A stretch of 63,936 nt of DNA, counting the filler, from Kipferlia bialata (Eukaryota), in the NCBI GenBank assembly GCA_003568945.1. It is 5 parts of 5 records of this genome, joined end to end, with 100 filler letters (N's around TTAATTAATTAA, not from the genome) between each part and the next. Parts side by side here need not be neighbours in the genome. Positions count along the whole stretch, not along the records: positions 1 to 24,539 come from BDIP01000222.1; 4 more parts are not named here. One strand, written 5' to 3'. Numbering within the stretch: position 1 is the stretch's first letter; each line of letters opens with the position of its first letter. Positions 13,779-48,207 of the stretch are shown here, one piece after another. The notes beneath the pieces are model-generated. The model saw only the letters and a program-made list of their open reading frames with translations, did no database searches and was not told the origin of the DNA. Position numbers and translations under genes: made by a program.

Positions 13779-13786
13779 GCTCCCAC

Positions 13787-14500: not shown

Positions 14501-14845
14501 TATTGCTGTGTCGTGCCTAAAGAAGCAGAACTATGAAACGAGCATCAGTCTGGCCGGGTTTGAATTATAACCAAAGTGAATTAAAGGTATAGGCCTTCAT
14601 ATATCGCAGTGTTCTCAAGGCGGTGATCTATAATGCTTGTGGGCAGATATCAAGTATCCTAGTTGTCTTCGAAGATATCATTCACCGTCGTGATGCTGAG
14701 GTGATGGCTCACTATGAATTCACTGAAACCCTCATTGTCAAATAGTCTCCCACTCTACTTGGCACATGTCACTGTCAATGTCACTACAGTCTAGTACGGC
14801 AGTCTATTATGGTACACCTACTAATTGACACGTATAATATGGACG

Positions 14846-15306
14846 CTATAGCATATCACATTCGTAAGCCTCTGGACACACAATATCCTCCTGGAACCGC
14901 AGCACCGATGTGTTGCACTTGCCAACCACCAGCACATCCTTGTGACTCAGGCGACAGCATGTGATGCGACCTGTATCGGTCCAGTTGGGGGAGGTGGTAG
15001 TCCACCACTTGCCCCACGGTGTGAGATTACCCTGAGAGTGAGGGGAACAATAATGATACGTATATATATATATATATATGTGCAACATAGTGTGAGTGGA
15101 TGTACCTCCAGCCTGTTGTACCCTGCCACGTCCCCAGTGTATCTGTTGACACTGACTATGTGTCTGCCCATGGGCATCAGGGTGGTGCCAGAGGGAGGGT
15201 TCATGCTGGGGCACGTGCTGCTTGTCTCCCACCCTGTCTCCAGACTGAACACATGGGACACCCTGCCATACTGCAGTATGTGGACACGGTCATCCATCAC
15301 TATCAT
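14846..15306 (-). CDS. 3' exons of a hypothetical protein (beta-propeller/Kelch-like composition)
   Basis: Two exons with GT-AG intron (…GYNRLE|GNLTPWGKWW…CDML*); out of phase with the upstream exons across the poly-G run. Confidence 0.5.
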
Positions 15307-15342
15307 CTGGGTCAGTATCAGGTGGGGGGGGGGGGGGGGGGG

Positions 15343-15379
<37 letters not shown>

Positions 15380-15439
15380 AGAGGGAGGGTAAAATAGGGA
15401 GAGCTGAATGGTTGTTTGACATGTGCTACTCTCTCGTAC

Positions 15440-15706
15440 CAAGTGCCTCGGTCTGTCCCTTCAGAGCAGTGTACCACCCGGCAGCAAGCTCTCTCCTCCT
15501 CTTCCAGAGGGCTGTGTCACCCTGGGTGTCAGAGAGAGGACATCACACTTTGTAATGGGTGACGAGTAAGCTTTTGTGCTTCAACTTACCCTCCTGGCGT
15601 CTGGTAGGTCCACAATGATGGCCAGACCCTTGTCCTGAGGGGTGGGGACAAACACACGCTGCACAAGCAGAGTCAGCTCCTCACTGGATAGGTGTGTGTC
15701 GGTCAT
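15440..15706 (-). CDS. 5' exons of a hypothetical protein (MTDTHLSSEELTLLVQRVFVPTPQDKGLAIIVDLPDARR|GDTALWKRRRELAAGW…)
   Basis: ATG 15706, exons 15706-15590 and 15521-15440 with canonical splice sites. Confidence 0.6.
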
Positions 15707-15931
15707 GGTTTTGATTTCAGAGGTGTAAAGGTCAGTGTCACTAAGCAGTCAAGTGAAAGCTCAACCCTTAGCGGATTTGTTTCTGCCTTACTCGCTTCCA
15801 AACACTGTCACACATCCTTTCTCAACTACAAGATCTATTCTTGCAGTCTGCAAGGTTAATATAGAAGCAGAGGGCGGGATATAGGAACATGAATAGTACA
15901 CATCTTAGTGAAGGGTGCCACTGAGGCAGGG

Positions 15932-18707
15932 TCAGTATCTGAGGGATGATATCACATCAGCCAGGGTGGAGTGGATGTATCCCACACTGCCCCTCTCGTT
16001 CCTCTCAGTCTCTACATCGAGAGAGTGCCTGACCCGTGCATCCTCCTGGTTCTCCTCACTCTCCATCTCTCTCTCCCTCTCTCTGGTCTCTTCGAACACC
16101 TTTACCTGATGTAAGAGGCAAATGGAAACACACAAACAATATCCTACACACACAGCAACTATGAAGTATCATATCACATAAGGCCACACACTGTCTCCCA
16201 CATAAATACCCACCTCCTGGATGACCTCCCTCAGCCTTCTGAGTGACACTGTCTCACTGGGCGTCAGCTCAGGGTGGACAGGGGTCTGGGACTCAGGCCT
16301 CTCCTCCAGTAGGATGGAGAGAGAGAGGGGCTGTCTGGCGGTGGGGGAGAGGGTCCCCACATAGTCCTGGCCAGACACACCAGACGCACTGACACTGACA
16401 CTGGACCCACAGTCATCCCTGGGCGACCCCCCTCTGCTCTCTCCCTGCCAGTCCGGTCTGGGTGCCTTGAGCAGCTGCTCTCGGATGTGGTGGGCCAGCA
16501 GGACATGCGACACCTCGGCCACTCCATCCGGTACAACCTCCAGGGCAGGGAGGGGGTCAGCGGTGTCTGTCCTACCAGTGGATGCCCCAGCTACCCCAGA
16601 CCCTGCCCTACCACCTGCATACCAGGGGTGCTGGGGGAAGGGGGAGACAGCAGCCCACAGAGACCCATCAAAGGAGGTAGCAAAGGAGGGGGCGGGGGCA
16701 CGTAGCCTCTCCTCCTGCAGAGCCAGGGAGACAGCTCTGAGGTTAGATGTATGTATATTCATGTATGTACAGACATAATAGGAGAAGTGTATGGATTAGC
16801 CCCACCTGACTGCGTTTGGGATACTGGTGCATATGAGGCACCCTGCCAGCATGCACCCCTCCACCGCAGAGTCATAGGCATGCAGGGCAGACACACAGTC
16901 GTCCAGGTGCAGCAGACGGAACCGCTGGCAGAGGGTCTCGATGCAGTGCCTAAGGCCTCTGAAGGTCTAGGAGTCAGATGCGGATCGAGAAAGGTACATA
17001 AGATGTGATATATGGGGTCGTAATACCACATCCTCGGTACACATACCTGTGCTAGCACCATCAGGTCACTGCGAAGGTGGGGGGTGCGAGTGCGGGAGGG
17101 GCTGATATTAGAGGGTAAACTGATAGAGTTAAGATAATACAGTATCCACAACTACCACATACCGGACCCCCTTTGCAATGCTCTTCCCCCATGCCTCAGC
17201 TGCCGCCACACTATAGCTGAGGAGGATGCTGATGGGAGCAGGGAAGGGCGTGGGGTACAGGGTGGGGGGTATGCGGCGTCGGTATGTCTGCACCCCAAGG
17301 GTGGACCCCCCCACCCTGACCCCAGACCCCCTCTCAGTAGTGTCCAGATAGTGCGCATGGGATAGAGCTGTGCACATCTGTATGACACCTCTCGCATGGT
17401 GCATGAAGGCTAGGGAGGAGCCTGTAGGGGGAACCGAGAGGGGAAGGGAGAGAGAGGGACACAGGCCAGGGGGGGTGGGCCGCTGGTGGAAGCTGTTCCA
17501 CTTCTCCTCCTCCCTGTGTGCCTGTATCAGCACCCTGGCCTCTCCCACCAGGGACACTGTGACTCTGCGCCACAGGGAGGGGTGGGGTGGGGCAGGGGAG
17601 ACCAGGAGTCGGTAGAGGAGGTGGGTGGGCCGCAGGGGGTAGAGAATGTCTGTCACGTATCTGCTGTGCTCCCTCTCATCCCCTCCCTCCCCTCCCTCAC
17701 TGAAGTCCCCGGTGAGTGAGGCCCCTGCATCATCCCAGGACTCAACATCATAGTAGTCGTGTCTGGGGTCAGATGAGAGAGAGAGAGAGGGGGGTATTGA
17801 GTGTCGATACATGCATACACCACCCATACCTATCCTCCAGGTGTATGTTCATCTGCAGGGACTGCAGAGGGAGCTTGGCCAGCCCCATCGCATGCATGGT
17901 CAATAGCATCGTGTAGGTATGCCTCTCGGGGGTGTCCATGTTACAGCAGCCAAACCTGGGTGAGGGAAGTTGGAGATAGATTACAAATATAGAACTCATA
18001 TATGCCACCATACACACACTCACCCGAACCCCCTCCCCCAGGACTGCCCCCTGGGTGCATCGACCTCATCAGGGAGGGTGCGCCACACAGACACAGCGGA
18101 CCTGGGTGAGGAAAGGGGGGGGGGGGGGGGGCTACACTGATGATATATATACATATATGTAAATATGTATCCAGTCACACCTGTTGACAGGGCAGAACAT
18201 GCTGTACACCAGTCTGCGGCATATGGGCCCTATCTGGTCGAAGAGAGGCTCCCACAGGGAGAGGAGGAGGGGTGCAGCCTCTGTGGCGACCCCTGCTGTG
18301 GGAGGGGGGCACTCCTCGGATGCAGGGTCGGACAGACGCTGCATGCACTCATGCAGGGAGGAGTGCACGCGGCGCAGATAGGAGACAAAGAGGGACAGGA
18401 AGGAGTGGGCCATCAGGGACGGGGGGGCCTGGGGGTAAGGGGGTGGTAGAGAGACATGAGTAGTAGTATATACTGATATACACACACCTCTGAGTCCCTG
18501 GCCAGGAGGGGGTGCTGTCTGCATAGCAGGAAGAGGGACTGCTCAAATGCCTCAATCCCTGTCTTTGTGCCCACCCCCCCTGTCAGGATGGACACGGTCT
18601 GTCTGTCCAGCACTATCCCATTCTGGACAAGGGGCATCACAGTCTCCACAACACCGGGGTCTAACTGCACCTCTCTATGCACAGGGTCCGGCACCAACAC
18701 TCCCTGC
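15932..18707 (-). CDS. Multi-exon hypothetical protein, 5' end lost in gap
   Basis: Series of GC-rich exons bounded by GT…CTCAC/CTGAC-N-AG introns; stop at 15932; no family recognised. Confidence 0.6.
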
Positions 18708-19755
18708 CTGGAGGGTAGAGGGGGGGGGGGGGAGAAGAGAGGGGGGGGGGGGGCATAATATACCAAATGTGCATGGNNNNNNNNNNNNNNNNNNNNNNNN
18801 NNNNNNNNNNNNNNNNNNNNNNNNNNNNNNNNNNNNNNNNNNNNNNNNNNNNNNNNNNNNNNNNNNNNNNNNNNNNNNNNNNNNNNNNNNNNNNNNNNNN
18901 NNNNNNNNNNNNNNNNNNNNNNNNNNNNNNNNNNNNNNNNNNNNNNNNNNNNNNNNNNNNNNNNNNNNNNNNNNNNNNNNNNNNNNNNNNNNNNNNNNNN
19001 NNNNNNNNNNNNNNNNNNNNNNNNNNNNNNNNNNNNNNNNNNNNNNNNNNNNNNNNNNNNNNNNNNNNNNNNNNNNNNNNNNNNNNNNNNNNNNNNNNNN
19101 NNNNNNNNNNNNNNNNNNNNNNNNNNNNNNNNNNNNNNNNNNNNNNNNNNNNNNNNNNNNNNNNNNNNNNNNNNNNNNNNNNNNNNNNNNNNNNNNNNNN
19201 NNNNNNNNNNNNNNNNNNNNNNNNNNNNNNNNNNNNNNNNNNNNNNNNNNNNNNNNNNNNNNNNNNNNNNNNNNNNNNNNNNNNNNNNNNNNNNNNNNNN
19301 NNNNNNNNNNNNNNNNNNNNNNNNNNNNNNNNNNNNNNNNNNNNNNNNNNNNNNNNNNNNNNNNNNNNNNNNNNNNNNNNNNNNNNNNNNNNNNNNNNNN
19401 NNNNNNNNNNNNNNNNNNNNNNNNNNNNNNNNNNNNNNNNNNNNNNNNNNNNNNNNNNNNNNNNNNNNNNNNNNNNNNNNNNNNNNNNNNNNNNNNNNNN
19501 NNNNNNNNNNNNNNNNNNNNNNNNNNNNNNNNNNNNNNNNNNNNNNNNNNNNNNNNNNNNNNNNNNNNNNNNNNNNNNNNNNNNNNNNNNNNNNNNNNNN
19601 NNNNNNNNNNNNNNNNNNNNNNNNNNNNNNNNNNNNNNNNNNNNNNNNNNNNNNNNNNNNNNNNNNNNNNNNNNNNNNNNNNNNNNNNNNNNNNNNNNNT
19701 TCCCCAGGGGTGGTGTTTTCCCCCCCCCCCCCCCCCCCCCCATTCTCTTCAGTCT

Positions 19756-19808: not shown

Positions 19809-22792
19809 CGGTCTCTTTGGCCCTGTGTGTCAGATACTGCTGAGTGTCAACCCTCAGATGTTTGTGGAGTGGTTCAGCCTGCACCCATTGCTCTGGATTG
19901 CAGTGAGGTGTATTGACCTTGTGTACCTCCATTTCTCTTCATCCCCACTCTTACTTCTAGTCAAGTGTGTATATATTGTTTGTGTCACCCTCACCTTTCC
20001 TGCTTTCTCTGTCTCTCCTCTGTCTCTCTGTCTCTCTCTCTCTCTGTCTTTCTCTCTCTATACCTATTTGCACCATCTCACTCCCAGCGTGGCTGTCTCC
20101 GTGGGCACCCTCACCTACTTCATAGTACTAGTGACAGTGGCAGAGTGGGCCACAAAGGCAACGTACGTATATACACACATAGTATTCTGCTACATATATA
20201 GATAGAGATTAAGGGGGAGAGAGAGAGAATAATGTCAGTCCTGGTCACAGTGGCAGAGTGGGCCACAAAGGCAACGTACGTATACACACATAGTATTCTG
20301 CTACATATATAGATAGAGATTAAGGGAGAGAGAGAGAGAGAAATGACAGTCCTGGTCACAGTGGCAGAGTGGGCCACAAAGGCAACGTGAGTATAGCATG
20401 TTTATATTGTGTATAGTTATAGATAGAGAGAGAGAGAGAAGTGGGCTACCAAGGCAACGTGAGTGTAGTGTATTCATATATATTGAGAGAGTGAGTGTGT
20501 GAGAGAGACTCTGTCTGTGTGTTTGTATGTACTCAGTGCACCTGACCCAGCTACCATGCTGTCTCCTGTCGCTATAGGATACAAGTGACTATTTCTATCA
20601 GTCTGAATATTTACTCATAATATATATGTACCAACTTCTCACCCCAGTTACCAGGCTGTATCGTGTAGGTTCAGATACCCCCAGAGGTTCCTGCTCTATG
20701 CTGGGGTGTACATATTCGTGGAGGTGCTCTATGGGTTCACAATGATGGGTGCGTGTTAGTAGTGTTAACTATACTATTATATATATGGGTGTGTTTACAT
20801 GGAATAGTAATAGTATCGTAAGTATTAATACATATCGTGTGTTCTGACCCCCAGGCACCAACTGCCAGACCGACTCTGACCACCTGTACATATGCCCTGT
20901 CCTAGTTCTAAACGGGTCCGGATTCAGGTATGGGGTATATTACATATATGTAAGGTATAGCATCCTGTTCCATCGTATGTATTATATATTTCCTTCGGAG
21001 TTCCTCTCACAACTTACATGCGTGCTTAGGAATGCGTCTCTCTCTCTCTCTCTCTCTTCCTCCCTCTACCCCCTAGGCGTGATGACCTGGATCAGATGGG
21101 TCTGCGACCATTCCTCAGGGAGGCCACATGCGATGGTATGGGTTGGGCCAATTAATATATATATATGTGTATATAACCAGGATATTTGTATGCATTGGCC
21201 ATTCCTCAGAGAAGCCACGTGTGATGGTATGTATTGTTCTGAAATAGATGCTAACACATCAAGTTCTTCCTCTGCGTATCTCTCCTCTCTTCGCTCCTCT
21301 CATCCCTCAGCCACCCACTGTGCCGAGATATCCCCAGTAGTGCGGTCAGACCTCAAGGTATTGCTATATGTCTGTACATACCTCTATATCTCTCTCTCCT
21401 TTTGTCTCTATATTGTTCCATACCTATGCATTTGTCCTTAGTACGGTCAGACCTCAAGGTAAGGACACACACACACATATATGTATATATACATATATAT
21501 ATACATATATATATATACCTCAAGGTACACTATGTCTGTCTCCCTCTCTTCATATGTATCTCTGTACCCCTCTAGTACGCTCAGACCTCAAGGTGCTATA
21601 TATGACTCTCTCTCTCTCTCTCAGTCTGTCTCTGAGGTTCCTGTATATATATATTCATCTCCACAGCCTCTAACCCCCAGGCCTTCTTCCTGATCCAGTT
21701 CCTTCTCTCTCTCTCTCTCTCTGTCTCTCTGTATCTCTCTCTCCGTCTCTGTCTCTCTCTCTAACCCCCAGGCCTTCTTCCTCATCCAGTTCATAGTGCA
21801 GCCCCTGAACTACCTCATCTACATGCGCTTCATCAGGTATATGTCTCTCTCTCTCTTCATCAGGTGCATGTGTCTATCTCTCTCTCTCTCCCATGTAGTG
21901 TGTGCGACGTGTAGGTACATACTCACCTTAGACTCTGAGCTCATAAACAACCAATGATGTTATGTGTATCCGTTTCTCTTGTATATCTGCTACATACACC
22001 TAACATCAGATACTACCCCGAGCTCATCAAGAACCTGCGGCGCCCTCTCTTTGACAAGAAGGACAAGAAGAAGGATGTGGACGAGAACTCTCCCCTAGGT
22101 AACCATATCATATAGATATATTCCCTGATGCCTCTTTGTCTCTATAATAGTCCTCTTTGTGTCAAGAAGGACAAGAAGAAAGATGTGGACGAGAACTCAC
22201 CTTTAGGTAGGGTGTATAACCTCAGCACGCTGAGTATTCTTACCCATATAACCAGTATACCAATACACCTCTTTGTCTATGTACCTATATAAAGTGTGTC
22301 TCCCTCCTCACCCCCAGTCGTTGTGGCCCCCAAGCAGGCAGAGTATACTCATCCTTGTCCATATATACAATACTGCTATATACCTGTATATCTCTCTCTC
22401 CATCCTCACCTCAGTCGTTGTGGCCCCCAAGCAGGCCGAGTTCGCAGGGCTGGTGGCAGTCAACTTCTGGTGGGTGTTATGGCATCTCTCTCTCTCTCTT
22501 TACCTGATTCCATATAAGTATAATGTAAGTATAGTGTTCACATTGATTGCATTTATGTATATATACCCCAGTTCGCAGGGCTGGTGGCAGTCAACTTCTG
22601 GTGGGTGACGTGTACTCTCTCCCCCTCTCTATATATAAGTTATGTATTGTGTATACTATTTATATTCCCTGACCCCAGGTACTTCTTCCTGTCCAGCGTG
22701 GCCTACCTATGGTGCAACACACTCAATGTGAGTATAGTATAGTATAGTATAGTAATTCTATATTCTAGTATTGTATACATGAGTCATGATGT

Positions 22793-22824
<32 letters not shown>

Positions 22825-23496
22825 TACACCCTTTAACCACAGTTCACTGTCATTGATGACCCTGATGAGTCTGTCATGATGTTCTGTGTCATTGTGATGG
22901 TCACATACCACGTCACACTGCTGGATAACCTGATAGGGATAGAAGGTGAGGAAATATATACACCCACCTTAGTGTATATATATGATTGTCACATATACTA
23001 GTCTGTATCAATGTATTAAGTCAATGCATATAGTCTCCCTCTCCCCCCAGGTGGCACCATGGATGCCCTGAGGGCTAGTAGGGGATATGAATTATATACT
23101 ACTATATATATGATTGTCACATATACTCTTGAGTCTCTCCTCTTATACAAGGTGGCACCATGGATGCCCTGAGGGCTAGTGGGGGATATGTGTTATGTAC
23201 TATATATATATATATATATTTATATATACATATGATATGTGATTGTTCCCTATACTCTATATCCTCCTTCTCACACCAGGTGGTACCATGGATGCCCTGA
23301 GTGCCAGGCCCTCCAACCAGATACTGTCAGACGACATCCCATATAGGTATGTGGATACGTATATATGTATTGACAGATACTGTCAGACGACATACCGTAC
23401 AGGTGGGGGATGGGTATTCGTCTACGCATCCACATGTGTGTATTAATTTCAATTTGGACTAACCCCTAGGTGGAAGGACACCTCTGCCAAGCACTG

Positions 23497-23531
<35 letters not shown>

Positions 23532-24494
23532 ATATATATATATGGCCTCACTCCCAGGTGGAAGGACACCTCAGCCAAGCATGAGCTATTGAGGGTACCC
23601 ATTGAGATGGCACTGCTGCTCACAGGGCCCGTGGTGTTCTTTGGTACCTGTACTCTCTCTTTCTCTCTCTTACAGCTATTCGACTCCACATACATATGGA
23701 TTTCCCTTCCAATACCTATTATTACTGACCCCAGTATGCAACCTAGACTCGATCTCTGCTGAGGACGTGTGTCCATCCCTGGCCCTACTGGTGGCAGAGC
23801 AGTTCTCTATACTGGGGTGAGAGCATATGTGTAGAGATATCATTAATGGGAGTGTACAGTGACACTCTTTGGACCCCATGTCTCTCTCAGTCTATTTCCC
23901 CTCAACCTAACCTATCATGGACTGGACTGTTTCTCTCTCCCCCCCCCCCCACCCTCTCTCTTCTCATCCCAGTCCATCTCTTAGTCTCGAGCGCCTTATG
24001 CTTCTCTCTCTCCCTCCCCCTCCCCCCGTCTTACTCTAGCATGTCCTTTGACCTCGAGTGCCTCATGCTCCTGGGTGCCCTGTGTCTAGTACTGTTTACA
24101 GTGTTCATACTGCTCATGAGGGGACATGTCGCTGTTACCACAATCAAGAAGAGGTTCAGGTATATATAAAGCTTATGTATAGTGTAGAGTAGACCATATA
24201 TATACTCCTCCTGAGGGAACACGTGGCTGTCACAACAATCAAAAAGAGGTTCAGGTGAGTGTATGTGGTGTCCCTCTAGTATCTATCTTCATACCAATAT
24301 TTATGTATACATGTCTCCATACATTGATATGTATTATGTATACAGGTCTCTCTAACTATCTTACCAGTTACCAGTGGTGATACCCCCATGACCCTCTAGT
24401 ATATATACCTCTATATATATTTGCACATAGCTCTCTTGCTCTCTCTCTATACCTGTCTCTCTCCCCCTCACCCCCAGTGGCGACACCCCCATGA

Positions 24495-25470: not shown

Positions 25471-26404
25471 ATGTTCAGCGGTAGTGGAGGTGTTGCACAC
25501 ATAGAGACAGCCAGGCCAGACCTGCCCAATGCAGGCGTGGCCCAGGCCCTGATTCCCCCATTCAACCAGGTATATAGTGCGTTGAGTGTAGGATTATTAT
25601 TAATACTATATTGCCTTCTATTCACTGATTGATATGCTGTGTGGTGCTCTGATTCCACACTTCATGCATGCATATCTGCTATTTGGATGAGTATAGTACT
25701 TCAGCACATATATGCTGCATGGCATGTGCATGAGAGGTCCCTAGTCTGGGAGTGTATACACTATGGTAGGTACCCCCCCCCCCCCACTTTCTTCACTCAC
25801 TCCAGTTCCTTCGTGTCCCCTACAAGGTCCTGGCCATTGAGACCCCCTCCGAGTTCACCTATGCCTCTGGGTCTGGGTCCACAGTGCGTGCATGGAACTG
25901 GCGCAATGGAAAGAGCAGACGCGCCTTCAAGGGACACACTGGTACGATGCTATGGGAGAGGCACTCTGTACTATATTATATCTATACTCGGAAAAGGATG
26001 TTGGTTTCAATATGACTTTGATTTGCCCAGTAGTGTGGCAGAAGGAATTGATTCTGTTACCGGTACCGGTACCGGTACCAAATCCGCTTCACTCTCCTTG
26101 TCTTTTTCATTTCTTCTCCTCTTACCCCAGGACCCGTGACCAGCATTGCCCTGGACTACCCTGCTGGCCTCCTCTACACAGGTAGGAGTGGAGTGTATGT
26201 GTATATATATATGAGAGTATATAGATACTGATACCCCCGCCCTGGACTACCCTGCTGGCCTCCTATACCCTGGTATACGCCCCCTCTATAGTGTACCTTC
26301 TATTGTTGTCAGTATATAGATTACTGATACCAGGCAGCTGGGACCAGCGCATTGGTCACTGATATACCCTCTCAGTATCCATAGTGTCACCATACCTTAT
26401 ATTA

Positions 26405-26440
<36 letters not shown>

Positions 26441-28349
26441 CTGATCCTTAGGCAGCTGGGACCAGCGCATTGGGGTGTGGGACCTCAAGACTGGGGACAA
26501 TGTCAAGTACGTGGCAGAGCACCTCGACTTTGTAAAGGTAGGGCTGGACTCTCTTTCTCTCTCTCTCTGTCCGACTAGCATGGAAGAGAGCATTATGTTT
26601 TCGTCTATCGAGTATAACCCTCTCTATATAGTTGTATTCTTTTATGGACTGCCCCTTGCTCTCATTCCCCCAACCATTTCCCCTCTACCCCCCTGGCATG
26701 TTTCTCTCTTTTCCCGTTTCCCTCTCTTTTCCTCTGTCTCTCTTTCCCACTTACCCTCTCCCTCTCACCCCAGGCCCTTGCTGTGTTCCCTGAGCACAAG
26801 CGCCTGGTGTCTGGAGATGCCAAGGGAGTCATGAAGGTATCATCTGTTGTATTGTAAATATTCCTTATATTGTGTCACATGCACTCTGGTGATGCCAAGG
26901 GAGTGATGAAGGTACTATCATTATTACAGTAGTTGATAATGTGTATATATCTTTATACTACTTGTTGCGTTATATACCCTCTGGTGATGCCAAGGGAGTC
27001 ATGAAGGTACTGCTATTCTCATGTATTTTGTGTATATACTACAGTTGTATTAATGGTGTGAGTCAGTCTCATAAGTGTGTATGGTAAAGAATATCCCCTC
27101 ACTGCTAGGTGTGGGACACTGAGACCATGACTGGTGCAGACCATCAATATATTTGTGTATATCAGTGTTATTATTGTATTTAGTATAGGCTATCCCCTCA
27201 TATATAGGTGTGGGACACTGAGACCATGACTGTGGTGCAGACCATCTACCACCACAGCAGGAGTGTGGACTCTATCATCAGACTGGGGTCATCCGACCTG
27301 TTCTGCTCGGCATCCAGTGACAGGTATATATATACACACATATATATATGTATTTGCACTGATGTGTAGATGAGTAGTGACACTGACACCAGGGCTGTGT
27401 GTGTGTGGAGGCTGGGTGCCGAGGCCCCCGAGGTCTCCCTCCCTGTCTCTGACGACATTGCTAAGAACATGGCAGGTGGGACACATACATTTATAGTACA
27501 CTCTTGCACTAACTCTATACATTTCACGCTTCATCTGTACTTACCCTTCAGGCCACCTTACGGGTGTCCTCGACCTTGTCTATGACGAGGGGACTGGTCT
27601 CCTCTACACTGCATGTGCAGACAGGTTCGTCCGTTGCTGGCGGCTCCCCCAGACGAGTGATGGCCAGGCTGTCATGCAGTGGGTGTCACCACACACACTC
27701 AACACTGGGGTGACAGCTCAGGTAGGCGGACGCTGATACATATGATATACCTATGTTTGTTTATGTATATACTGACGTAACCAGGTTGGCACCAAGTATG
27801 AGGAGGCTGATACCTGTACTGATACGTGCACTGATACCTATGCATATATATATATACTTGTATATGTATATATACTGACATAACCAGGTTGGCACCAAGT
27901 ATGAGGAGGCAGCCCACGACCGCATCCTCCCTGTCCTCTCTGACTGGCCCCTCTCCATCGCTCTCTCTGCCGACAGGGCCCACATGGTGTGTGGCCTGAG
28001 GGACGGGCGTGTGACAGTGCTCGACAACAGTGACGGGTCTGTGGTGGGCAGTGTGAAGCCCCACAAGGACGGCATTGCATCCATAGAGTGTGTGTCCATG
28101 CTGGACTCCGGTGACAAGGACGTGCCCCAGTCGGAGCAGACACCAGTCGAGTGTGTAGTGACCGGCTCCTGGGACTTCTCTCTCAGGAGGCGGAGGCTGG
28201 GTGACCTCCTGGCTGAGATTAAGGGTGTAGACAGGGAGGAGGGGGAGGGAGAGGGCGAGGACTCCTTCGAGGACACGGATGATATGCTGGATGACCCCGA
28301 GGTGGCCGAGATGCAGAGGGAGAGGCTCAGGGCCATGCTCGGAATGTAG
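25471..28349 (+). CDS. WD40-repeat protein
   Basis: Spliced repeats: AFKGHT|GPVTSIALD…LLYT|GSWDQRIGVWDL; RLVSGDAKGVMK|VWD; FCSASSDR|AVCVW; VVTGSWDFSLRR; acidic C-terminal tail. Start codon tentative. Confidence 0.88.
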
Positions 28350-28583: not shown

Positions 28584-30739
28584 ATGTCCCAGGGAGAGAG
28601 TGCCAGTGAGGAGTCGTCCTCCTTCGATGACGAGGACTTCTCGGACATGCCGGGTCTGGAGCAGGTGGACGTGCAGGCACAGAGGCAGGAGATGGCGGCA
28701 GGTATTCATATGATGCATACCCGTATTACTATATATATATATATATATATATATATGTTCAAGCACAGAGGCAGGAGATGGCAGCAGGTAGGCTTGTATA
28801 CCCCACTATGTAGTCATACTCTTATTTCTTTTGTGTATACATAGGTACAGGCACAGAGGCAGGAGATGGCGGCAGGTACACTGTGTATGTAATGTATATA
28901 GGTATATCCAGGCTTGTATATACAGGGGGGTGCAGGCACAGAGGCAGGAGATGGCAGCAGGTAGAGTGCACTATATCCATGTGTGGTAGAGTATACCCAG
29001 TATATATATATAGCGGCGTGCAGGGCAGAGGCAGGAGATGGCAGCAGGTACCCGGCATACTAACATACACACATATGATGCACTCTAAATGCATGGTTTA
29101 GCATGATCTTACCCCCAGAGCTAGCCATTGACTTCCGTGACCTCCCCATGGGCACCCTGGAGGATGGTGCTGAGCCTGACTATGCCCATGCCGCTGAGCT
29201 CAAGAGTAGGGCACTGGAGGAGGCCAGGGAGGGACACCTTAGGTATGAGCAGTGTATATATACTATCATATAGTGTACTCTCTATCAAGAGTAGGGCACT
29301 GGAGGAGGCCAGGGAGGGACATCTGAAGTATATCGTAGTATATACTATATAGTACACACTCTCTCTATCAAGAGTAGGGCACTGGAGGAGGCCAGGGAGG
29401 GGCACCTCAGGTAGGGCGGTGTAATGGTATCATATATATTCTCTCTATCAAGAGTAGGGCACCTCAGGTAGGGCGGTGTAATGGTTTCATATGTATTCTC
29501 TCCGCATCACTGGTGTCTCACCTACCGGTATCTATTCACCTCAGGAAGGCCGTCCTCCTTGCCTCCGATTATCTAGTATAGTATATTACAGTAGTATATT
29601 CTACATTCATAATCAATTCACCTTAGGAAGGCTGTCCTCCTTGCCTCCGATGCAGTCCAGGCCCACCCTGGGAGTGGGCTGATGCTGGTGTGCAGGGCAC
29701 GCATCCTCATCGACCTGGGGGAGATATCAGCCGCAAAGAGGGACCTCAAGGTATCCCAGACACACACTCTCTCTCTCTCCCCCTCCCTCTACACAATCCT
29801 TTACTTATCTCTCTCACTCCAGCTGGCTGTTAAGCGCTCTCCCAACAGTGCCAGTGCATACCACTGCCTAGGTACATCAGTGCTAGTATATATATATATA
29901 TATATATATGAACTGCCATAGGTTCACTGATGAATAATGTATCAATACGCCGATACTTACAGTGTCTGTCTAACTCTTCAGGTGACGCCTGCAGTCTGTA
30001 TATGTGACAATGTTATTATATATGAGAAATTGTGCTCTCTATTGTATTCGATCCATCTACTTATGGTAGTACTTATCCCTAAGGCGACGCCTGCCGTCTG
30101 CTGTGTGACAGTGAGGCAGCAGTATCATAGTATATAGTGCATATTTGATTATTGATGGTACATTGATATACACCATATCTTTCTCTCATCTTCAGGCGAT
30201 GCCTGCCGTCTGCTGTGTGACAGTGAGGGTGCTGTCAAGGCATACCGCACTGGGCTTGACCTGGAGTACAGGGCAGAGAGTGCTAGACACCTCACGGTCA
30301 TGGAGAAGGATGTTAAGGTATAGGGATATACCACCCATAGCATATGTATATATATATACCACTATGATAGTATCTGTTTATATATATATATATATATATA
30401 TCACTGTGGTAGTATCTGACTGTCATGGAGAAGGACGTCAAGGTATAGGGATATACCTCCCATAGCATATGTATATATATATACAGCTATGCATATTTAT
30501 GTATAGCTGTTGTTTTCCCTGTAATGGTACTGATGTCCTGGGCTAGGAGCAGGCCAGTCAGTATTCTCTCTCTCTCTCTATATATCATTATACACTGATG
30601 CCCTAGGAGCAGGCCAGACGGGACAGGGCAGTCAGTGTCATATATTGTACACACTACTATTTGCATACTTCTATATATATATATATCAGTTGATACTGAT
30701 GCTTTAGGAGCAGACAAGACGGGACAGGGCAGTCAGTAT

Positions 30740-30778
<39 letters not shown>

Positions 30779-30941
30779 CAGTTGACCCTTATCCCTAGGA
30801 GCAGGCCAGACGTGACAGGGCAGTCCGGGAGAAGGTCAAGGTCGACATCAAGCCTGGGAAGCCGTCATCTGCCATACCTGGGGTGCACCCAGCCGCACAG
30901 GGGTTCAAGCCTCCTGCTGGCATGGCCAACCGTACGTTAGA

Positions 30942-30983
<42 letters not shown>

Positions 30984-31286
30984 TTCCCTCTATATATATG
31001 CTATCTTACCCCAGCCTTTGAGGTGCTTGCTGACGAGGCTGCCAACCTCTCGCCCCAGATGGCTGAGAGGCTCATGGGGGACAACAAGGTGGCATCCCTC
31101 TTCAACGACCCAGACTTTGCGGCAAAGGTATGTTCATAGTATTCATTACCCGGCTTAAGGTGTGATATCTACCCCCAGCTTGCCGAGGCCTCCAATGGTC
31201 CAGAGGGTGCTGCCAAGTTTGCCAATGACCCCGAGTTTTTGAAGAACATTGCGGCATTCATGGGTGTCATGGGGCAAAAGAAGTGA
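28584..31286 (+). CDS. Hsc70-interacting protein (HIP/ST13)-like TPR plus STI1/DP co-chaperone
   Basis: TPR helices (KAVLLASDAVQAHPGSGLMLVCRARILIDLG…RSPNSASAYHCLGDACRLL) and C-terminal DP motifs (LFNDPDFAAK…KFANDPEF); stop 31284-31286. Confidence 0.78.
28671..29050 (+). repeat. Five regularly spaced exon-end/donor repeats with dissimilar spacers
   Basis: CAGAGGCAGGAGATGGC(A/G)GCAG|GTA with GT at 28702, 28788, 28876, 28961, 29048. Confidence 0.95.
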
Positions 31287-33022: not shown

Positions 33023-36000
33023 TGAAGAAGAGAGGAGGAGAGAGCAATGGAGAGAGACGTAAAAATACTACTTCTCACACAGAGCCAGGCATATGTGTGC
33101 ACTGAAAAATATACATAGAGAGAGAAAGAGAAAATGTATAGAGAAGGAGGAAAATTGAGGGGAAGGGGGAGAGAGTATATACACCCTTACCTCTCACACA
33201 GAGCCAGACACGTGTCTGCACTAATATCCTGCACTAATATGTATATATGGAGAGAGAGAGAAAATGTATAGAGAGAGAGAGAGAGGTTTACCTCTCACAC
33301 AGAGCCAGACACGTGTCTGCACTGAGTTGCACTGCCTTGTGGACATGGAAGTCAGTGTCGGCAAGGTGGAGGAACCTCTCTGAGGTAAGTGTTGAGAATG
33401 CCTATGTATTACTTCGGTGATAGAGAAAGAGACTGTCCACAAGGTGTAGGAACATCTCTGACGTTAATACCGACACAACCCAAAGGTTAGTACCCATACT
33501 GCGCAAACGACTACAAAACAGTCTCCTGGCAAATACTATAAATACTATACATGGCATGAATACCTGTCTCTGCGTCGATGCAACCAATCCCAAGTGTAGT
33601 ATTGTCTGCAGTGTATCCGAGGAAGAGAGCGTAGCGGCGCTTGGGACCCACATTGACATATGCAGTGTGTGAGAAGGCGGGTGGTAGACCCCACTCAGCA
33701 CTCCACCTCCACTCTCTCTCTCTCTCTCCCTCTCCACCCTTTACATCGGTGTAGGAGAGAGTGTAAGTGGGTGTACCAGGTGCACTGTAGATGTACACCA
33801 GTGAGTCTCCAAGGATGATGGGGTCACTTCTGGTGGCATCCTCTAAACCTTAGGATCAGATATCACACACGAACAAATATACCTATCCTACATGAAGATT
33901 CATTCATGGAGAGAGAGATTGAGGAAGAGGGGACACAAAGAGAGATGTACACAACCATAGTACTACAAATAGTATTTTGAGGGAATATATGTATGAGGTG
34001 TTACCTTGAGGCCTTGGGTGCATCTGACAGTCTGGTCATATACATATGCATATATATATATATATACATATGCATATATATGAATATAATACATATCTTA
34101 CATATATATAATTGGTGAATACGTATTATTCACCTTGGAGCCTTGGGGGTACCTCTGGCAGTTTGGTCCCACCCATATATATATATTCATATATAATACT
34201 ATATATGTGCAATGTAGGTATGTGTATGTACTGTGCATATACAATGTGATAATATACCTTGAGGTCTAGGGGTTGCCTCTGGCAGTCTGGTCCTATCTAT
34301 CTCTCTATATATATATACTATTGCTATGTGATTATCTAATATAGATATTATAGTATACCTTCAGGCCTTGGAGGTGCCTCTGGCAGTCTGGTCCACTGCT
34401 CAGTCTGGGTGTCAGAGAGAGAGGGAGAGAGAGAGAGAGAGAAAGACCAGCCAACTCTTGTGCACTCCAACTGCCTCATTCACTGTAATCAGAGAGGGGA
34501 AGGGGGGAAATACACCAAAACAAATACACCTACACTGTTGACGGTGTACCTTTGTGTCGAACTCCCACACCCCAGCTGCCTCATCGGCACATGTCCGGAG
34601 GATCTTGCCCTAGGGTCAGGGAGAGATTTACACATGTATACTCTGGTGTATGAGTAATCATAGAGTATGGATAGGAGTATACAGAGAGAGCTAGTTGGCC
34701 GTACCTTCAGACCATGCAGCCTCACCCCCTTGGCAGCCTTTGGACCTGTCTTTGGCCTGCATGGCTTCCAAAGGCCTAATGGATAAGTAGTTTACAAGTA
34801 CAGAACGGCAAACTAGCATAAACAGCTGATACTGATACTGATACTGATACTTCAGAGAGAGATCTATATACCTGAGTGTGGGTGGAACACCTCAAAGTGG
34901 TGGCTGGTGCCTCTTCTGCGGAAGTAGACGCCACTCCTAAGGGTCACACCCCTGGGTGAGAAAGATACTGCATTCCTAATATATATATATATATATATAC
35001 ATATACAATAGGTAAGAAGGGTGTATCAAGGAGCGGTGGAGAATAAAGTGCACTGGATGAGAAGAGTACATAGAGCGCTAGATGAGACAGAGAGAGAGAC
35101 ACGCAGAGAGAGAAAGAGAGAGAGGGAGACTCACCCGGGGACAGCTGCGTTGTTGAACTGTCTCAAGAAGCACATCTTCCAACATAGCTAAGTCACAAGG
35201 TATATATATATATATACATATATGCAAATATGTAACTAACTCACCCTGGTACAGCTTCGTTGTTGAACTGTCTCTTGCCAGGGACAAGTTTGTATTCACT
35301 CTTGCCTGGAATCAGTGTTGATATTAATATATACATTAATTAATATGATATGGCATACACACTCTTGTTCACTCTTGCCTGGAATCAGTTCTGATACATT
35401 GTAGACTTACTATATACACATGTGTATATATATATGTGTGTGTATATAGATTCTTCGGCTTGTCAGATACCATTGCTGACATGTGAAATAGCATATATAT
35501 ATGTAGCATACTCACTCTGGGTCCCCTTGTTCCCCTTCATTGGCTTGTCAGTCACTAGTAGCTTCTGGAGGCCATTAACTACCACAGTACCGGAGGAGGT
35601 ACTCTTGGCAATGTCATCTGACATAAGAGAGAGAGAGAAAGAGATAGATTGAGAGAGAGAGAGAGAGAGGGAGAGAGTGACATCAGGGTCTGAGGAGGTA
35701 CTCTTGGCAATGTCATCTATAGTAAGAGGGGAGGTAGAGTGAGAGCAGTAGATTGATAGAGAGAGAGAGACAGAGAGAGATACCACAGTGCCTGAGGGGG
35801 TACCCTTAGCTATGTCATCTGACATTAGAGGGGGGAGGGAGAGAGATATGTGCAAACCGATGTAGTTCAGAGAGAGAGAGAGAAAGAGAAAGAGAGTACC
35901 TGTGTGGTCCAGGCCAAGTACAGTATAATATTGATGAATAATAGGCTTCAATGTTCCTACATCTATATATTTGACACCTAACCTGTGTGGTCCAGGCCAA

Positions 36001-36348
36001 GTGAGTGCAGGTACCTGAGAGGTGAGTGGGAGTATAGGGCAGAGAGAAAGAGGGGCATTAGGCCGGAGACAAGACATATAGTATGTGGAGTCGTGAAAGA
36101 GAGTACACGAAGACGTGGGAAAGATGTCAAGTGGGAAAGGGGAAGGGGAGATCAGGCTATCTGACGTACATGAATCCCTTGGTGGACCCCCCAAAGTCAG
36201 AGAGGGATACTCTCTCTCTCTCTATATATATATATCAAATAGGTTGTAAATAAATATATATATATATATATGTATTCACTCTCTGACGTACATGAATCCC
36301 CTTGTGGACCCCCCAAAGTCAGAGAGGGAGAGGGTGCGGGGCATGGTC
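32660..36348 (-). CDS. Multi-exon hypothetical protein (beta-propeller/Kelch-like C-terminal part), 5' end in gap
   Basis: Exons such as GVWEFDTK|TEQWTRLPEAPP, LGIGCIDAET|ERFLHLAD…ALCES|PDAHDGKDWCDMTLD…GMGVA*. Confidence 0.6.
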
Positions 36349-41284: not shown

Positions 41285-41495
41285 ACTGAGGATGTGGATT
41301 CAGTAAATTCACTCCAGTGTGAGAGAGAGTGCGTGTGTATAGACAATCACTGGGAGATAGCTAGGCAGTATATATAGTATGTACATAATATACACATACA
41401 TACTCACATGATTGAGTTCCTCAGCTTCATCATCTCATGTAGTATCCCACATACCATATGCATACATATACATATATATATACTGGTATACTCAC

Positions 41496-42462
41496 ATGAT
41501 TGAGTTCCTCAGCTTCATCATCTCGTGGGGGGTCAGGGCACCCCGGGTGTACTTGGAGGGGTGCCTACAGTGAGATAGGTATCTATATATATATATATAG
41601 GTATATATATAGGGAGGGAGAAAATGGGTGAGAGAGAGAGAATGGGGAGACCCCGGGTGTACTTGGAGGGATGCCAAAAGTAAGACAAATGTGTTACTAT
41701 ATATATAAGGGGGAGAGACAGAGATATAATGGAGGGTCAGAACACTAACAATATATATATATGTCTGGTGATGTACCTTGGCAGCCACAGCAGAATGTCC
41801 CATAGATATACAAGTATATGTTCAACATATGTAAATATAACCACATAGACTATTAGAGAGACATTCATATTCATCATACCTTGGCAGCCACAGCAGTATG
41901 TCTCCTGGTATATATACACATACATATGAAGCATATCAATACATATACATGTATATACATACGATAGAGGTGTATAGATATTCATACCTTGGCAGCCACA
42001 GCAGCATGTCGCTTGTTATACCAAATACAAAAGGTACTATATAAGGTACTCTATAGACATACTATAATAATATATCGACATATACATATATATACATATA
42101 TGTATGTACCTTGGCAGCCACAGCAGCATGTCTCCTCTGCGCCGCACATTGGTCTGGGGGTGAGAAGATGACAGAATATATAGTGTATATAGTATATATA
42201 TATATATAAGATAACACAGTATATAGAGTATACATAGTGTCTCCTCTGCGCCTCACATTGGTCTGGGGGTGAGATACTCATGGGAAGATAACGGTGAGAT
42301 AGTATGAAATAATGGGAATAGATGGGAAGCCGGTGCAGGGGGAGGGGAGGGAGGGTAATACAAAACTCATATACACACATATATTCCCACCTGGTGGAAT
42401 GTCCTGATGGATGGGAATGCCGTCCTCAGCTCATTCACAACCTGCTTGTAGTCCTTGCCGTT
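41496..42462 (-). CDS. Internal exons of a hypothetical protein, possibly Myb/SANT-like
   Basis: NGKDYKQVVNELRTAFPSIRTFHQ|TNVRRRGDMLLWLPR|HPSKYTRGALTPHEMMKLRNSI; only loose resemblance to a Myb repeat start. Confidence 0.45.
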
Positions 42463-42705
42463 CTAGAGTTAGATATATGTATACATATATATACACATAT
42501 ACTATACTATACTGAGAGGGAGAGAGAGACAGGGAGAGAGAGACCACCTGCGTTTAGTCCTTGCCATTCTAGAGTTAGAGAGAGATAGTAAGAGTCATAT
42601 CTACCTAGATAGATATAGATAGATATACAGAGAGAGAGAGAGACAGAGAGAGGATAGTGAGAGGGAGAGAGCTGTAACTGAGGGGGGGCCAACGGGTTGG
42701 GGAAA

Positions 42706-43382: not shown

Positions 43383-46300
43383 ATGGTACACCTAGCCAGA
43401 GTGTTGTACAGTGTCCCGGGTGAAGACCCCCTCCCAACCACCCATTCCGTCTGTTCGAGTGTAATTATGTATAGTCTTCTCTTCTGATCACACTATGACC
43501 TGCGATACATAAAGCCCTTTTGTGGTCGTACCTCCCAGCGTATTGTGTCACTATACTCTCTCTCACTCCCTCTCTCTCTCTCTCATACCAGATCGACACT
43601 GTCAAGCGTCTTCTGGAGTACAACGTAGCTATATATGTATATATTGCATATAAGTATATAGACGTATACCTGTATGTTCTCTCTATTGCCAGGTCGACAC
43701 TGTCAAGCATCTTCTGGAGCTCTCTCTCTCTCTCTCTCTCTCCCTCCCCCTCTCTCTCTCTCTAACCTCTAGATTGACACTGTCAAGCACCTCCTCGAGT
43801 ACAACGTGCCAGGGGGCAAGGGGTTCAGGGCACTCCTCTCCATATACTCCTTCCTGTGCTATGTGGATGGGTGCGTAGTGTTCACTCTACATATCAATTC
43901 ATTGTACATTTGTATGTTTTATGTTCCCTTATACTCCTTCCTGTGCCATGTGGATGGGTAAGTCGGCCTATTACATACAATACTGTCTTAAAGCATGTAT
44001 ATTGTGTATTCATAGGTAGGTAATCTTGCTTTGCACATATATATTCTCTTATGATTGTGTCTTCCTCGTCGTTAATGTATTATTGTTATATTATTTGGTA
44101 ATTTGATATGCTCTGGAGGCACTCGTCGATATCTAGTCATATGGTCTCACCCCCTCTCACCCCCTAGCCTTGTGGAGGGTGGTCTCGAGGGGTTCTCCAG
44201 GCACTTCCCGGTGGACGAGGTACTACACTTATATGTATGTATATATATATATATAGATACACACCCATATATTCAATATATATATTATCTACTATGAGTG
44301 AGGACGAGGTAACACATGTTTGACTCTCAAGATTCCTATGCATATGTTTATTCTGGTCACTAGTCTCTGTTCTTCTTCTTCCCCCATGTCTCTTGAGAAA
44401 CACACACACATATATATTTATATATACCTTCACCCCAGACCATAGCCGACCTGTCCCGCCTTGGCTGGATGCACGAGACACTCCAGAGTGCATTCCTCGT
44501 GATAGACGATGTGCTCGACAATGCAGGTATATTATACTTTGATATTTATTATATATATATATTATTATATACTAGTATAGTATTATTATACTGTCAATAT
44601 ACGAATCTATATTGTTATTGAGAGAATGCCCTTGTATTTATTCATGTTCCCTTTATTAGCACTTTGTTAGTATAACAATTGAGAGACTATGCCCTTCTCA
44701 CTTCCAGGCACCCGTCGCAGCAAGCCCTCCTGGCATGTCATGAAGGTATTCTTACACCTGTCTCATTTCTTTGTTCCAGGGTCTCTCTCTATAATTCCAT
44801 TCTTTTGTGACATGTAGACTCAATCATCCCTCACCCCCAGGGCCCAGGCCGTGCTGGCTTCGATGGGTTCATCCTCAAGGGCGTTTCGTCCCAGGTACCT
44901 GGAGTATTTAATAGTATATCTCTTGTGTTGTTTTCTTTCACATATATATATATGCGTCTCCTTCCTCACCCCCAGGTTGCCTCTGACCTTGAGAGGAGGT
45001 GCAGTGCTACTGGACTCCTGCAGGTATGAGAGACCCATGCGAACGACAGGACATGTATAGTATACCCTCTTATGTATAGTATTTCGTATATTTAGACCTT
45101 GAGAGGAGGTGCAGCTGGACTGCTACAGATGAGGCAACACTATATATTATTGGTATATAGTTCTATGTAATTGATTACTCACCCCCAGGTCCTTGAGCAC
45201 GTGTGCATGCGTACATGCATGGGAGAGCTAGACGACACAGACCTCGCAGTCACAGGTATACATATGTATAATACTTGACGAAGTAAATAGTGATACCTCA
45301 TGTCATCAGGCTCCACCCTTGATGAGCTCCGCACTGCCTGCCCCCCCACCCTCATATATGTTATACTATACTATATGTGTTACTATATTCTAAATGTACC
45401 AATAACTGCATATTGTGTTAATTACTCACATACTACCCTTAGGTACTACCCTTGACGAGCTCCGCACTGCCTGCCCCCCCACCCTTGTTGACTCCATCCA
45501 CTACAACAAGACAGCCCTGTACACAGTGTGGTTCCCAATCCTCAGTGGTGTGCTTGTCGCACAGGTAGATATGCATATAAATGAACAGTGTCAACTCTCA
45601 TCATAGCGCTGTATATATGCTTTCTACTGACGTAGCGGTATCGTGAGACTTGCCCCACTAGTAGATATATCTCTCTTTCTCTCTCCTTGACATGCTGAGC
45701 TCTTTCCCCACCTCCCCCCCCCCCCCTCCACCTTCTCGCAATATATATGTATATATATATATCATAATGAACACTACTAACTACAGGGCATGCTGAGCTC
45801 TGTCCCCCACCTCACCCCCCGCACCCAGCACACCAAGTCTGTCTCCATGGACACATCCAGCCCTGTCGGTGGGGCACCTCTGCCTGAGAGGGTGCTCTGT
45901 GATGAGGAGACGACACCCAGGTAGGGTATATATCTACATATCATGATGTGTCAATGTGAATCATGTAGCATTCTATATTGATATTGTAAGATGAATATGA
46001 TGATTGCTAGACCCTAACCCCAGGCAGCTAGAGTCTCTCAACCTGTCCCAGGTCTGCATTGAGATTGGGCACTACTTCCAGATCCAGGATGACTATCTCG
46101 ATGTGTTTGGGGACAAGGTACGGCATATCTATCTGTATGTGGCATTAGATAGTTCCGTAGCTACACGTATATAACTGTATATGGTTGGTAACCCTCAGGC
46201 CGTGATGGGCAAGGACGGGTATGACATCAGCGTGTACACTGTGTCTATACAGTGTGTATATAACATATATATTAATTTGCATATATACTCTGTCTCTTAT

Positions 46301-47663
46301 GTACCAGGCCGTGATGGGCATGGACGGGTGTGACATCAGTATGTATATACATATATATATATGTATATACTATATATATACTATATATATATGTATGTAG
46401 TATCTATTCTAACCCTCAGGCCGTGATGGGCAAGGACGGGTGTGACATCAGAGAGGGCAAGGTGTCGTGGTGCCTGTCCACTATGCTGCATGGGTGCGAG
46501 GGGTACGAGGCCCAGGAGCTGACAGGTATAGTTGAATATATATATATATATATTTATATATATAGTATAGTATATATATATACATATATGCATAGTGGTG
46601 CCTGTCCACTATGCTGCACGGGTGCGAGGGGTACGAGGCCCAAGAACTGACAGGTATAGATGCATGTATATATGCATATAGTATATATATATACATATAT
46701 GCATAGTGGTGCCTGTCCACTATGCTGCATGGGTGCGAGGGGTACGAGGCCCAAGAACTGACAGGTATACAGACACATATTTTTACTATATAATGTATTT
46801 ATGCTGATCTCTCACCCCAGACGCCGAGGTGTCTCTCTTTGCCTCCACCTATGGCAGGGGGCCTCCCCCTATATTATGTATATATATATGTATTGTATTT
46901 CTATGTATATACCTCTCACCCCAGACACCGAGGTATCACTCTTTGCCTCCACCTATGGCAGGGGGTCCAGTCCAGCCAAGGAGGACGTGGACGCAGTGAG
47001 GAAGGTATGTTACTTGAATGTGCAAGAGAATAAGGTAGCATGTATATATGTATTGCAGGGGAAGGTCAAGGAGGACGTGGACGCAGTCAGAAAGGTATAT
47101 AAGTAGAATGTCATTTATACACTATACATGAGTATGTATTTGTTTTGCAGGGTCCGGCCAAGGAGGACGTGGACGCAGTGAGGAAGGTAAGAAATAGTGT
47201 ATCCACCTCTTGTCAGGTTATCAGGTTATGACTTAGGAGAATCTCTGAGTGTATGTGGACCATTAGTTTGTATATACCACTTTCCCCCCCTCTCTTATTG
47301 TATATATGTACACTGACTCTAGGTCATGACTGACAGAGGCATCCCAGAGGTCTATGCACAAGTGAGCAAGAGGTGAGACAACCGTATAGCTACATTGTCT
47401 TGTGATCAGTTACCCTTTATGTACAGTTTCATTTGCAGTCTGACTTATATAATACAAGGTACCAGCGTGACACATCCGCCGCTGTGCATGCCCTGTTCCC
47501 TGCCTTATATGTATACTGTATTTATATACTATATGTGCATACTGCCTATAAATTGACTTCTAGGTACCAGAAGGACATTGCAGCTGCTGTGCTTGCCCTC
47601 CATCCTGCCCTCCAGCCACCCCTGACACTCTTCCTCAGAAAGCTGGAGGGGAGGAAGATGTGA
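43383..47663 (+). CDS. FPPS-type trans-prenyl diphosphate synthase (start codon uncertain)
   Basis: LLEYNVPGGKGFR; FARM QSAFLVIDDVLDNA|GTRRSKPSW; YNKTALYT; SARM IGHYFQIQDDYLDVFGD; GKDGCDIREGKVSW; basic C-terminus EGRKM*. Confidence 0.92.
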
Positions 47664-48207
47664 TATACATCATTGTATTGTATACAAAGTGTCTCTTCAG
47701 CCCCTTCCCCTGACACTCTTCCTGAGGAAGCTGGAGGGGAGGAAGATGTAGATGTAGATGGTAGTAATAGACGTGAATGATAGATGAGTCAATGCAATGT
47801 TTTAGGGCTTTGTTGCAACCTCTGGAACTATTTATAAATAACAGAAGGAGAAAGGAGTTGCGACAGTCGCCCCTGCTACAGGCAGTAGAGTATTCCTCGG
47901 GGAGTAAAGGGGAATGTGTCAGAAGTACAATTGGGTATAGTATCAACGATGAATTGTCACTGTGACGAGATATTTAGTGGAACTGGCCCTCTATGAGCAC
48001 CATAGGACCCCAATGAAAGTCTGAACTATCTCCTTAAGGTTAGAAGGCAGAGAGGAACGAGACTGGCAGAGAGGGGAATGAATGAGTGAGTATACATATG
48101 GGGTATATGGGGAGTGAGAGAGGGGGGGGGGGGGGGGGGGGGGAGGGGGGGACAGCCCCCCGGNNNNNNNNNNNNNNNNNNNNNNNNNNNNNNNNNNNNN
48201 NNNNNNN

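Follow-up and report, generated by a model that had tools for sequence, protein, structure and literature searches.

Intronic echoes of exon ends in Kipferlia bialata differ from their exons mostly at silent sites

In intron gain by duplication of an AGGT motif, splicing runs from the GT in the first copy to the AG in the second, and the second copy enters the mRNA. Where introners and other insertions duplicate their target site, the exon end is repeated and the new intron sequence lies next to it. Internal tandem duplication that spans an exon-intron border (Gao and Lynch 2009, cited in PMC3342872) produces, as the citing passage outlines it, head-to-tail copies that carry a splice site, and longer introns. 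Mutually exclusive tandem exons, such as those of Dscam treated in a portion of PMC3342872, are likewise neighbouring copies; they have a low dN/dS and are multiplied by staggered recombination. When divergent genotypes of the hyperdiverse fungus Schizophyllum commune recombine, crossovers fall preferentially in exons, according to the relevant part of PMC4209137, and silent diversity is given there and in a section of PMC4576712 as 0.13-0.20.

Here we describe short copies of exon ends, termed echoes, that lie in the introns beside their exons in the fornicate Kipferlia bialata. Their structure is that of internal tandem duplication, since they are direct, adjacent, same-strand repeats that carry the exon end and its splice site on the predicted side. 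Differences between exon and echo follow the codon frame. They differ from the process as described in PMC3342872 in that 32 of the 54 modelled introns hold one (median intron length 281 nt with an echo, 95 nt without) and in that the untranslated copy keeps a codon-level signature of selection. Unlike introners, echoes are mostly 19-59 nt long and differ in sequence from the exon, and their silent bias is explained by no mechanism of insertion. The spacer flanks of one junction are, within this window, mostly unrelated, which bears on a repeated element family of the introner or transposon kind. No description of an echo pattern with silent bias was found in searches of openly available papers, and the string 'duplicat' occurs 0 times in the main text of the genome paper.

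The material is a 63,936-nt stretch of K. bialata DNA (GCA_003568945.1), here called the window, in which five parts are joined with 100-letter fillers; positions 1-24,539 come from BDIP01000222.1. Seven genes (61 exons and 54 introns, all GT-AG) were chosen by eye from its repeat-rich middle and modelled, and all counts refer to this window. Each exon was compared with its own flanking introns by an ungapped, position-blind search, which returned 68 echoes in six of the seven genes. When exons were set against foreign introns, a score of 13 was reached in 8 of 600 trials and a score of 18 in 0 of 600; thus, about two of the 68 may be chance. An automatic exon predictor, which served as a draft only, took some echoes for exons. 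A reading of the echoes as micro-exons was rejected; 0 of 34 donor echoes have an acceptor of real strength.

The geometry of the echoes is strict. Of those upstream of their exon, 26/30 begin at the exon start and 0/30 reach the exon end; downstream, 35/38 finish at the exon end and 0/38 begin at the exon start. This arrangement is what must result when a tandem duplication begins or ends within the exon and has its other limit in the intron. The distance between echo and exon, taken over the 60 anchored echoes, is 56-346 nt with a median of 110. In a count that makes no use of gene models, 54 of 55 local repeats fall within 20-48 kb of the window, and their density tracks that of TA runs (rho 0.84, 32 bins). 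The echo-rich genes have TA-rich introns, and the regions 1-19000 and 48000-63936 contain long GC-rich genes with short introns, few TA runs and almost no echoes. The phenomenon is patchy: a D-Tyr-tRNA deacylase gene (PF02580; 24732-25324, minus strand, four exons and three introns of 52-77 nt) lies between echo-rich genes, and comparison of its exons with the flanking introns found no echo.

The gene in which echoes were first noticed lies at 19809..24159 on the plus strand, has 15 modelled exons and encodes a multi-pass membrane protein of no Pfam family. It is truncated at 24539, where the piece ends. A search with one 41-residue exon returned a single protein, K. bialata KIPB_001534 (P0001), and the exon chain is that of this deposited sequence. 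No listed run is recorded as RNA, and run X2 was taken as RNA solely from an intron-skipping contig (contig 9, 1097 nt). All five displayed pieces of this contig agree with the offsets expected from summed exon lengths (130, 304, 649, 842 and 1012-1097), which shows that each intron of the host gene is removed whole, echo included. Intron gain by a duplicated AGGT was rejected on this ground. Exon 3 (20648..20748, plus strand) is used in the contig, with no other letters over 20648-20747. Exon 5 (21077..21135, plus strand), the last 28 nt of which are echoed, is placed in part by X2 bin depth. For the acceptor echo at 20551 and the donor echo at 21199, bin depths of 9.13 and 4.47 match 51 and ~25 exon nt at a depth of 28.5, which leaves both echoes uncovered. 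Low-depth unspliced X2 pieces at 22130-22352 and 23614-23763 (depth 5 and 8 against 28.5), the first of which covers a donor echo, may be retained introns, pre-mRNA or DNA.

Two pairs of exon and echo had been singled out in a sequence-only reading of this gene, and both lie where it put them. In the donor pair, the end of exon 5 (21108-21135) is echoed on the plus strand at 21199..21226, where a GT follows and the intron flank is at background similarity. The claim of four changes, all silent, is borne out: the differences, at 21119, 21122, 21128 and 21131, are all third-position, and both copies read PFLREATCD. In the other two frames the peptides differ. When the base changes are kept and positions are random within this 28-nt stretch, all four would be silent with a chance of 2/7 x 2/7 x 2/6 x 4/9 = ~0.012. 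A wrong reading frame, which would have undone the claim, is contradicted by the spliced contig, the deposited protein and a paralog, P0002, that is 61% identical to the host-gene protein.

The acceptor pair is more diverged. Exon 3 is echoed on the plus strand at 20551..20578, behind an AG at 20549-20550, over at least 28 nt. Seven of the nine differences are at third positions and five of the seven changed codons are silent; the two replacements (Q/H and F/Y) are conservative. The peptide score of this echo, 41, is the second of 127,818 six-frame positions in the window (the exon itself scores 49 and the next position 29), and the best score at 362 AG sites in the introns of other genes is 17. 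The echo falls under the threshold of the nucleotide search and was left out of the 68 counted. Its silent sites are near saturation, a depth of divergence not expected of ordinary alleles. Two further short acceptor echoes, at 29982 and 35378, are also sub-threshold at the nucleotide level and uncounted. The description of the changes as near-exclusively synonymous therefore overstates a bias that is nonetheless strong, with 109/166 differences silent over the 68 counted echoes against 5/7 changed codons in the acceptor pair.

Further echoes of the host gene, all on the plus strand, follow along its length. Exon 2 has three donor echoes (20237-20275, 20348-20386 and 20440-20458) in a 111-nt tandem unit, with 8/8 counted differences silent. 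Two donor echoes of exon 6 (21439, 21567) and an acceptor echo of exon 7 (21681) lie within 21439..21701. Exon 8 has a donor echo (22152-22206) in which a Leu codon is changed silently at its first position, and exon 9 has an acceptor echo (22318) and a donor echo (22567), within 22152..22600. Within 23051..23493, exon 12 is echoed twice on the acceptor side and once on the donor side, and exon 13 has an acceptor echo; the donor echo of exon 15 (24202..24254) has six silent and two replacement differences.

Beyond the host gene, eight echoes lie in a plus-strand WD40-type gene (25471..28349), the WD40 matches of which are weak and below curated cut-offs, and 12 in a plus-strand gene with an STI1/HOP-like DP stretch (28584..31286), in which 20/22 differences are silent. 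Exon 1 of the latter has four donor echoes, every one with a different intron start. Two minus-strand genes follow, a partial model at 34140..36347 with eight echoes and one at 41408..42568 with three exons modelled and seven echoes. A plus-strand polyprenyl synthetase gene (43592..47751) has 15, and its model agrees with the deposited protein P0003 at 376/376 residues. Short runs of a palindromic GGTACC-based repeat occur at 26060-26080, 56040-56053 and 56201-56216, in introns of two genes.

Over all 68 echoes, 109 of the 166 differences are silent and 116 are on third positions. A permutation null that keeps each base change (20,000 permutations) gives a mean of 44.4 silent differences and a maximum of 65. 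The corresponding rates are dS 0.272 and dN 0.037 (pS 0.228, pN 0.036), a dN/dS of 0.135, which becomes 0.124 for the 60 echoes scoring at least 18. Post hoc choice of frame was rejected as an explanation, as the two wrong frames give 21 and 23 of 166 silent. Mutation bias was rejected too: every base change is preserved in the null, and both directions are represented among the unique silent changes (C to T 17, T to C 15; G to A 13, A to G 7). On the donor side alone, changes from G in the exon to A in the echo are commoner than the reverse (22 against 7 in all counts, 13 against 6 among unique silent changes), with C and T balanced.

The fair null is a dead echo beside a selected exon, for which 42% of differences would be silent and dN/dS would be about 0.5. 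Such ordinary dead copies, drifting freely while only the exon is selected, would account exactly for the geometry, which is that of tandem duplication, and for the acceptor side when pooled. There, 37/76 unique differences are silent (P 0.14), as are 21/42 in 18-nt windows (P over these treatments 0.12-0.20); dN/dS on this side is 0.26-0.32, and the silent share exceeds that of pure drift without exceeding what dead copies predict. Of the 34 anchored replacement changes on the acceptor side, 21 come from three echoes of one gene, two of which are visibly over-extended alignments. The full data nevertheless reject the model (P 9e-10), as do the counts limited to one echo per exon side (P 4e-6) or to unique sites (P 4e-7). 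By gene, it is rejected in those labelled A, C and D, with the strongest bias in A and D, and is not rejected singly in E, H and I (P 0.23, 0.53 and 0.10).

The excess lies on the donor side: 66/83 differences are silent, dN/dS is 0.065 and P is 3e-11. It persists there at unique sites (56/73 silent, P 2e-9 against 0.42 expected) and in fixed 15-21 nt windows at the junction. The codon-blind decay expected of internal tandem duplication, with a dN/dS of about 0.5, is thus not what is found, either overall or at donor junctions. Nor do dead copies account for the echo-echo pairs, and in simulation local copying does not rescue them. A bias beyond ordinary dead copies stands for donor-side echoes and does not extend to the pooled acceptor side. 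As untranslated DNA should not respect codons, the donor-side ratio needs an explanation beyond duplication and decay, and dead copies are judged improbable as a general account. The echoes are real and widespread in affected genes, and on the donor side they are not explained by ordinary decay.

Other features of the echoes point in the same direction. When echoes are compared with one another, 25/36 differences are silent and 11 are replacements, over 25 pairs that are not independent. The GT is retained in 33/34 donor echoes and the AG in 23/26 acceptor echoes. At least one echo, of another exon, has a 6-nt in-frame gap in which two whole codons are missing, and the echo of the last polyprenyl synthetase exon, in the 3' flank (47619-47751 region), has TAG where the exon has TGA. 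The echo-echo bias, the kept GT, the in-frame gap and the stop-to-stop change are signs that the echoes diverged as coding sequence. Several echoes carry frameshifting deletions, so not all of them are protected now. The flanks, in turn, have mostly lost any resemblance: the next 40 nt are at unrelated-intron similarity in 26/34 donor echoes, acceptor flanks are at background in 19/26, and the five copies of one exon end each run into a different intron start. Silent divergence shows no relation to the similarity of the flanks (rho 0.04 and 0.01), and overdispersion of silent differences is borderline (P 0.051).

At 30291-30483 the exon end and its echo differ at four silent sites in 27 nt, and the next 41 intron nt have one difference; either the exon part or the flank was replaced on its own. 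This pair lends itself to the idea that silent sites of exons change faster than intron copies, for example by error-prone rewriting of the exon from its own transcript, the echoes being slow snapshots of the earlier exon. Transcript RNA or cDNA is listed among possible repair templates in general in one portion of PMC8516963. Such a process would explain the silent bias of both exon-echo and echo-echo pairs without foreign alleles, and it fits a homozygous locus. However, by our own arithmetic (m/(1+m) = 0.135 to 0.065), exons would have to mutate ~6-14 times faster than echoes, and the 41-nt similar flank can be the product of recent local conversion. Further, intron flanks are mostly unrecognisable, echoes do take frameshifts, and the balance of unique silent changes given above is not an editing-like spectrum. 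Fast exons are unlikely on this evidence.

The echoes might instead be used in cis, now or recently, as rare isoforms, through a non-standard jump between direct repeats, or as half-lost mutually exclusive exons. Use of this kind would place the echoes under purifying selection directly, and it would account for the most diverged of them (20551 and 47459), which resemble long coding divergence. Donor-like GTs after acceptor echoes are also slightly raised (rank test P 0.011), although strong ones follow only 7/26 against a background of 0.20 (P 0.25). Unlike mutually exclusive exons, echoes are incomplete copies with a single splice site, and the main mRNA contig lacks them; whole exons with both splice sites are found neither among the 34 donor echoes nor, as judged by the end-to-end counts, on either side of the exons. 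The spacing between echo and exon is divisible by three in 13 of the 60 anchored echoes (20 expected; a weak deficit), so use of an echo site by mistake would in most cases disrupt the reading frame, and several echoes are themselves frameshifted. Echo variants, which the sequence-only reading had proposed to seek in mRNA, are absent from the main contig at 3/3 echoed exons that can be read directly. No letters other than those of the exon are present across exons 3, 8 and 13, whose echoes differ, in evidence that consists of assembled contigs, which drop rare forms. Use in cis is accordingly held to have a low probability. It and the fast-exon explanation remain live rivals.

The possibility that the echoes are an assembly artefact, two diploid haplotypes having been written in tandem, was also considered. 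The genome is reported to be diploid from k-mer peaks, in the part of PMC5874029 that concerns ploidy, and haplotypes would differ at silent sites. Against this, separately assembled DNA contigs of run X1 traverse echo and exon with 0 differences and at usual depth (20359-21027, 21071-21460 and 21771-22468), which argues against an artefact, although X1 is possibly the source of the window, so that its assembly, and not its reads, would be independent. Up to five different versions of one junction are present besides. An artefact of this kind is extremely improbable. Across the 4.76-kb host locus, X1 shows other letters at only 1/15 exons; the locus looks homozygous in this culture, and contigs can also hide alleles. 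A second X1 contig over 20658-20750, most of exon 3, has a depth of 487 (others 322-486) and, among the listed letters, three silent changes and one V/T codon. It may be a paralog, a far echo or a leftover allele.

Donation of echoes by paralogous genes elsewhere in the genome would have candidates in this second copy of exon 3, at single-copy depth, and in P0002. At the 37 residues where exon and paralog differ, however, the echo sides with the exon 34 times and with the paralog once. A 40-residue exon of the polyprenyl synthetase, whose gene has 15 echoes, matched its own protein only, in a weak search. Paralogs are therefore very improbable donors.

A toy simulation (30 sites, N = 100, few replicates) was used to compare modes of copying. 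Copying within one lineage, with the exon seat under selection, gave a pN/pS of 0.48-1.12 in 18/18 settings, so concerted evolution in cis cannot give the observed ratio. With overwriting from a homologue, one of eight settings (theta 0.3, rate 60 x mu) gave a pS of 0.29, a pN of 0.036 and a ratio of 0.12, at an allelic silent diversity of 0.25; the ratio was at most 0.12 in 2/8 settings and near 0.5 at theta 0.05. As one-lineage copying fails, homologue overwriting fits and the paralog is not the donor, exchange with diverged alleles is favoured.

The explanation that we favour, with about an even chance of being right, is that echoes are junction-spanning head-to-tail duplications in which a functional but diverged allele of the homologous chromosome was the source of the exon part or has overwritten it. 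Breaks in TA-rich introns would be mended through homologous recombination, on which a lineage reported to be without NHEJ and Rad51A mainly relies. If the alleles were very different, only exon sequence would pair well, and a broken end might invade the exon of the homologue out of register, or copy it and rejoin. The product of an out-of-register invasion would be an exon end with its splice site and the intron start of the homologue. Later exchanges between exon and echo would multiply the unit and overwrite its exon-like part as far as homology extends; the flanks would drift apart, and copies that escaped overwriting would decay by frameshifts. Differences between exon and echo would be mostly silent because both were alleles under purifying selection. 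The spliceosome would skip the echoes, probably because each has one splice site, in keeping with exon definition.

The setting fits such an exchange. Metamonads are reported to lack NHEJ, and fornicates to lack Rad51A and to have two Dmc1, which serves in its stead, in the sections of PMC8516963 on these repair genes; diploidy and the exon-preferring crossovers of S. commune complete the picture. In that fungus, too, exons are the stretches in which diverged homologues still pair, but the part of PMC4209137 that deals with crossovers describes them in register and does not mention out-of-register junction copies. In Kipferlia, exchange with diverged alleles would need a silent diversity of ~0.25, above the 0.20 given for S. 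commune in the relevant section of PMC4576712. Since the host locus looks homozygous, it must also assume loss of heterozygosity or inbreeding. The diverged alleles may have arisen through outcrossing, hybridisation or long asexual divergence of homologues, which are indistinguishable here. The asymmetry in bias between donor and acceptor sides counts against exchange of alleles and is unexplained. No second strain was found for comparison of alleles, the protein clusters of P0001-P0003 having one member each, and two metagenome scans for relatives of Kipferlia gave 0 confirmed among 170 and 589 pattern matches. Donor-side echoes may, alternatively, be kept true to the code by some as yet unknown process, RNA-guided or linked to splicing, in which they are used.

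The echoes bear on several aspects of the biology of this organism. Dozens of intact decoy splice sites constitute a natural test of exon definition, in a setting where the spliceosome is reported to be reduced (87/174 proteins, PMC6679479). If the copies do come from diverged alleles, evidence on silent diversity and on recombination between homologues would be obtainable from a single genome, in which former alleles of a population among the most diverse known in eukaryotes would be archived in series. Whether the relatives of Giardia in this group have sex is an open question, and the echoes would then prove that homologues exchange sequence in a fornicate that is free-living. They would also show an intron-rich genome lengthening and replacing its intron ends under repair by homologous recombination. 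We tentatively suggest, at somewhat less than even confidence, that routine repair files pieces of the exons of other alleles beside splice sites, and in doing so grows and renews the intron ends of Kipferlia.
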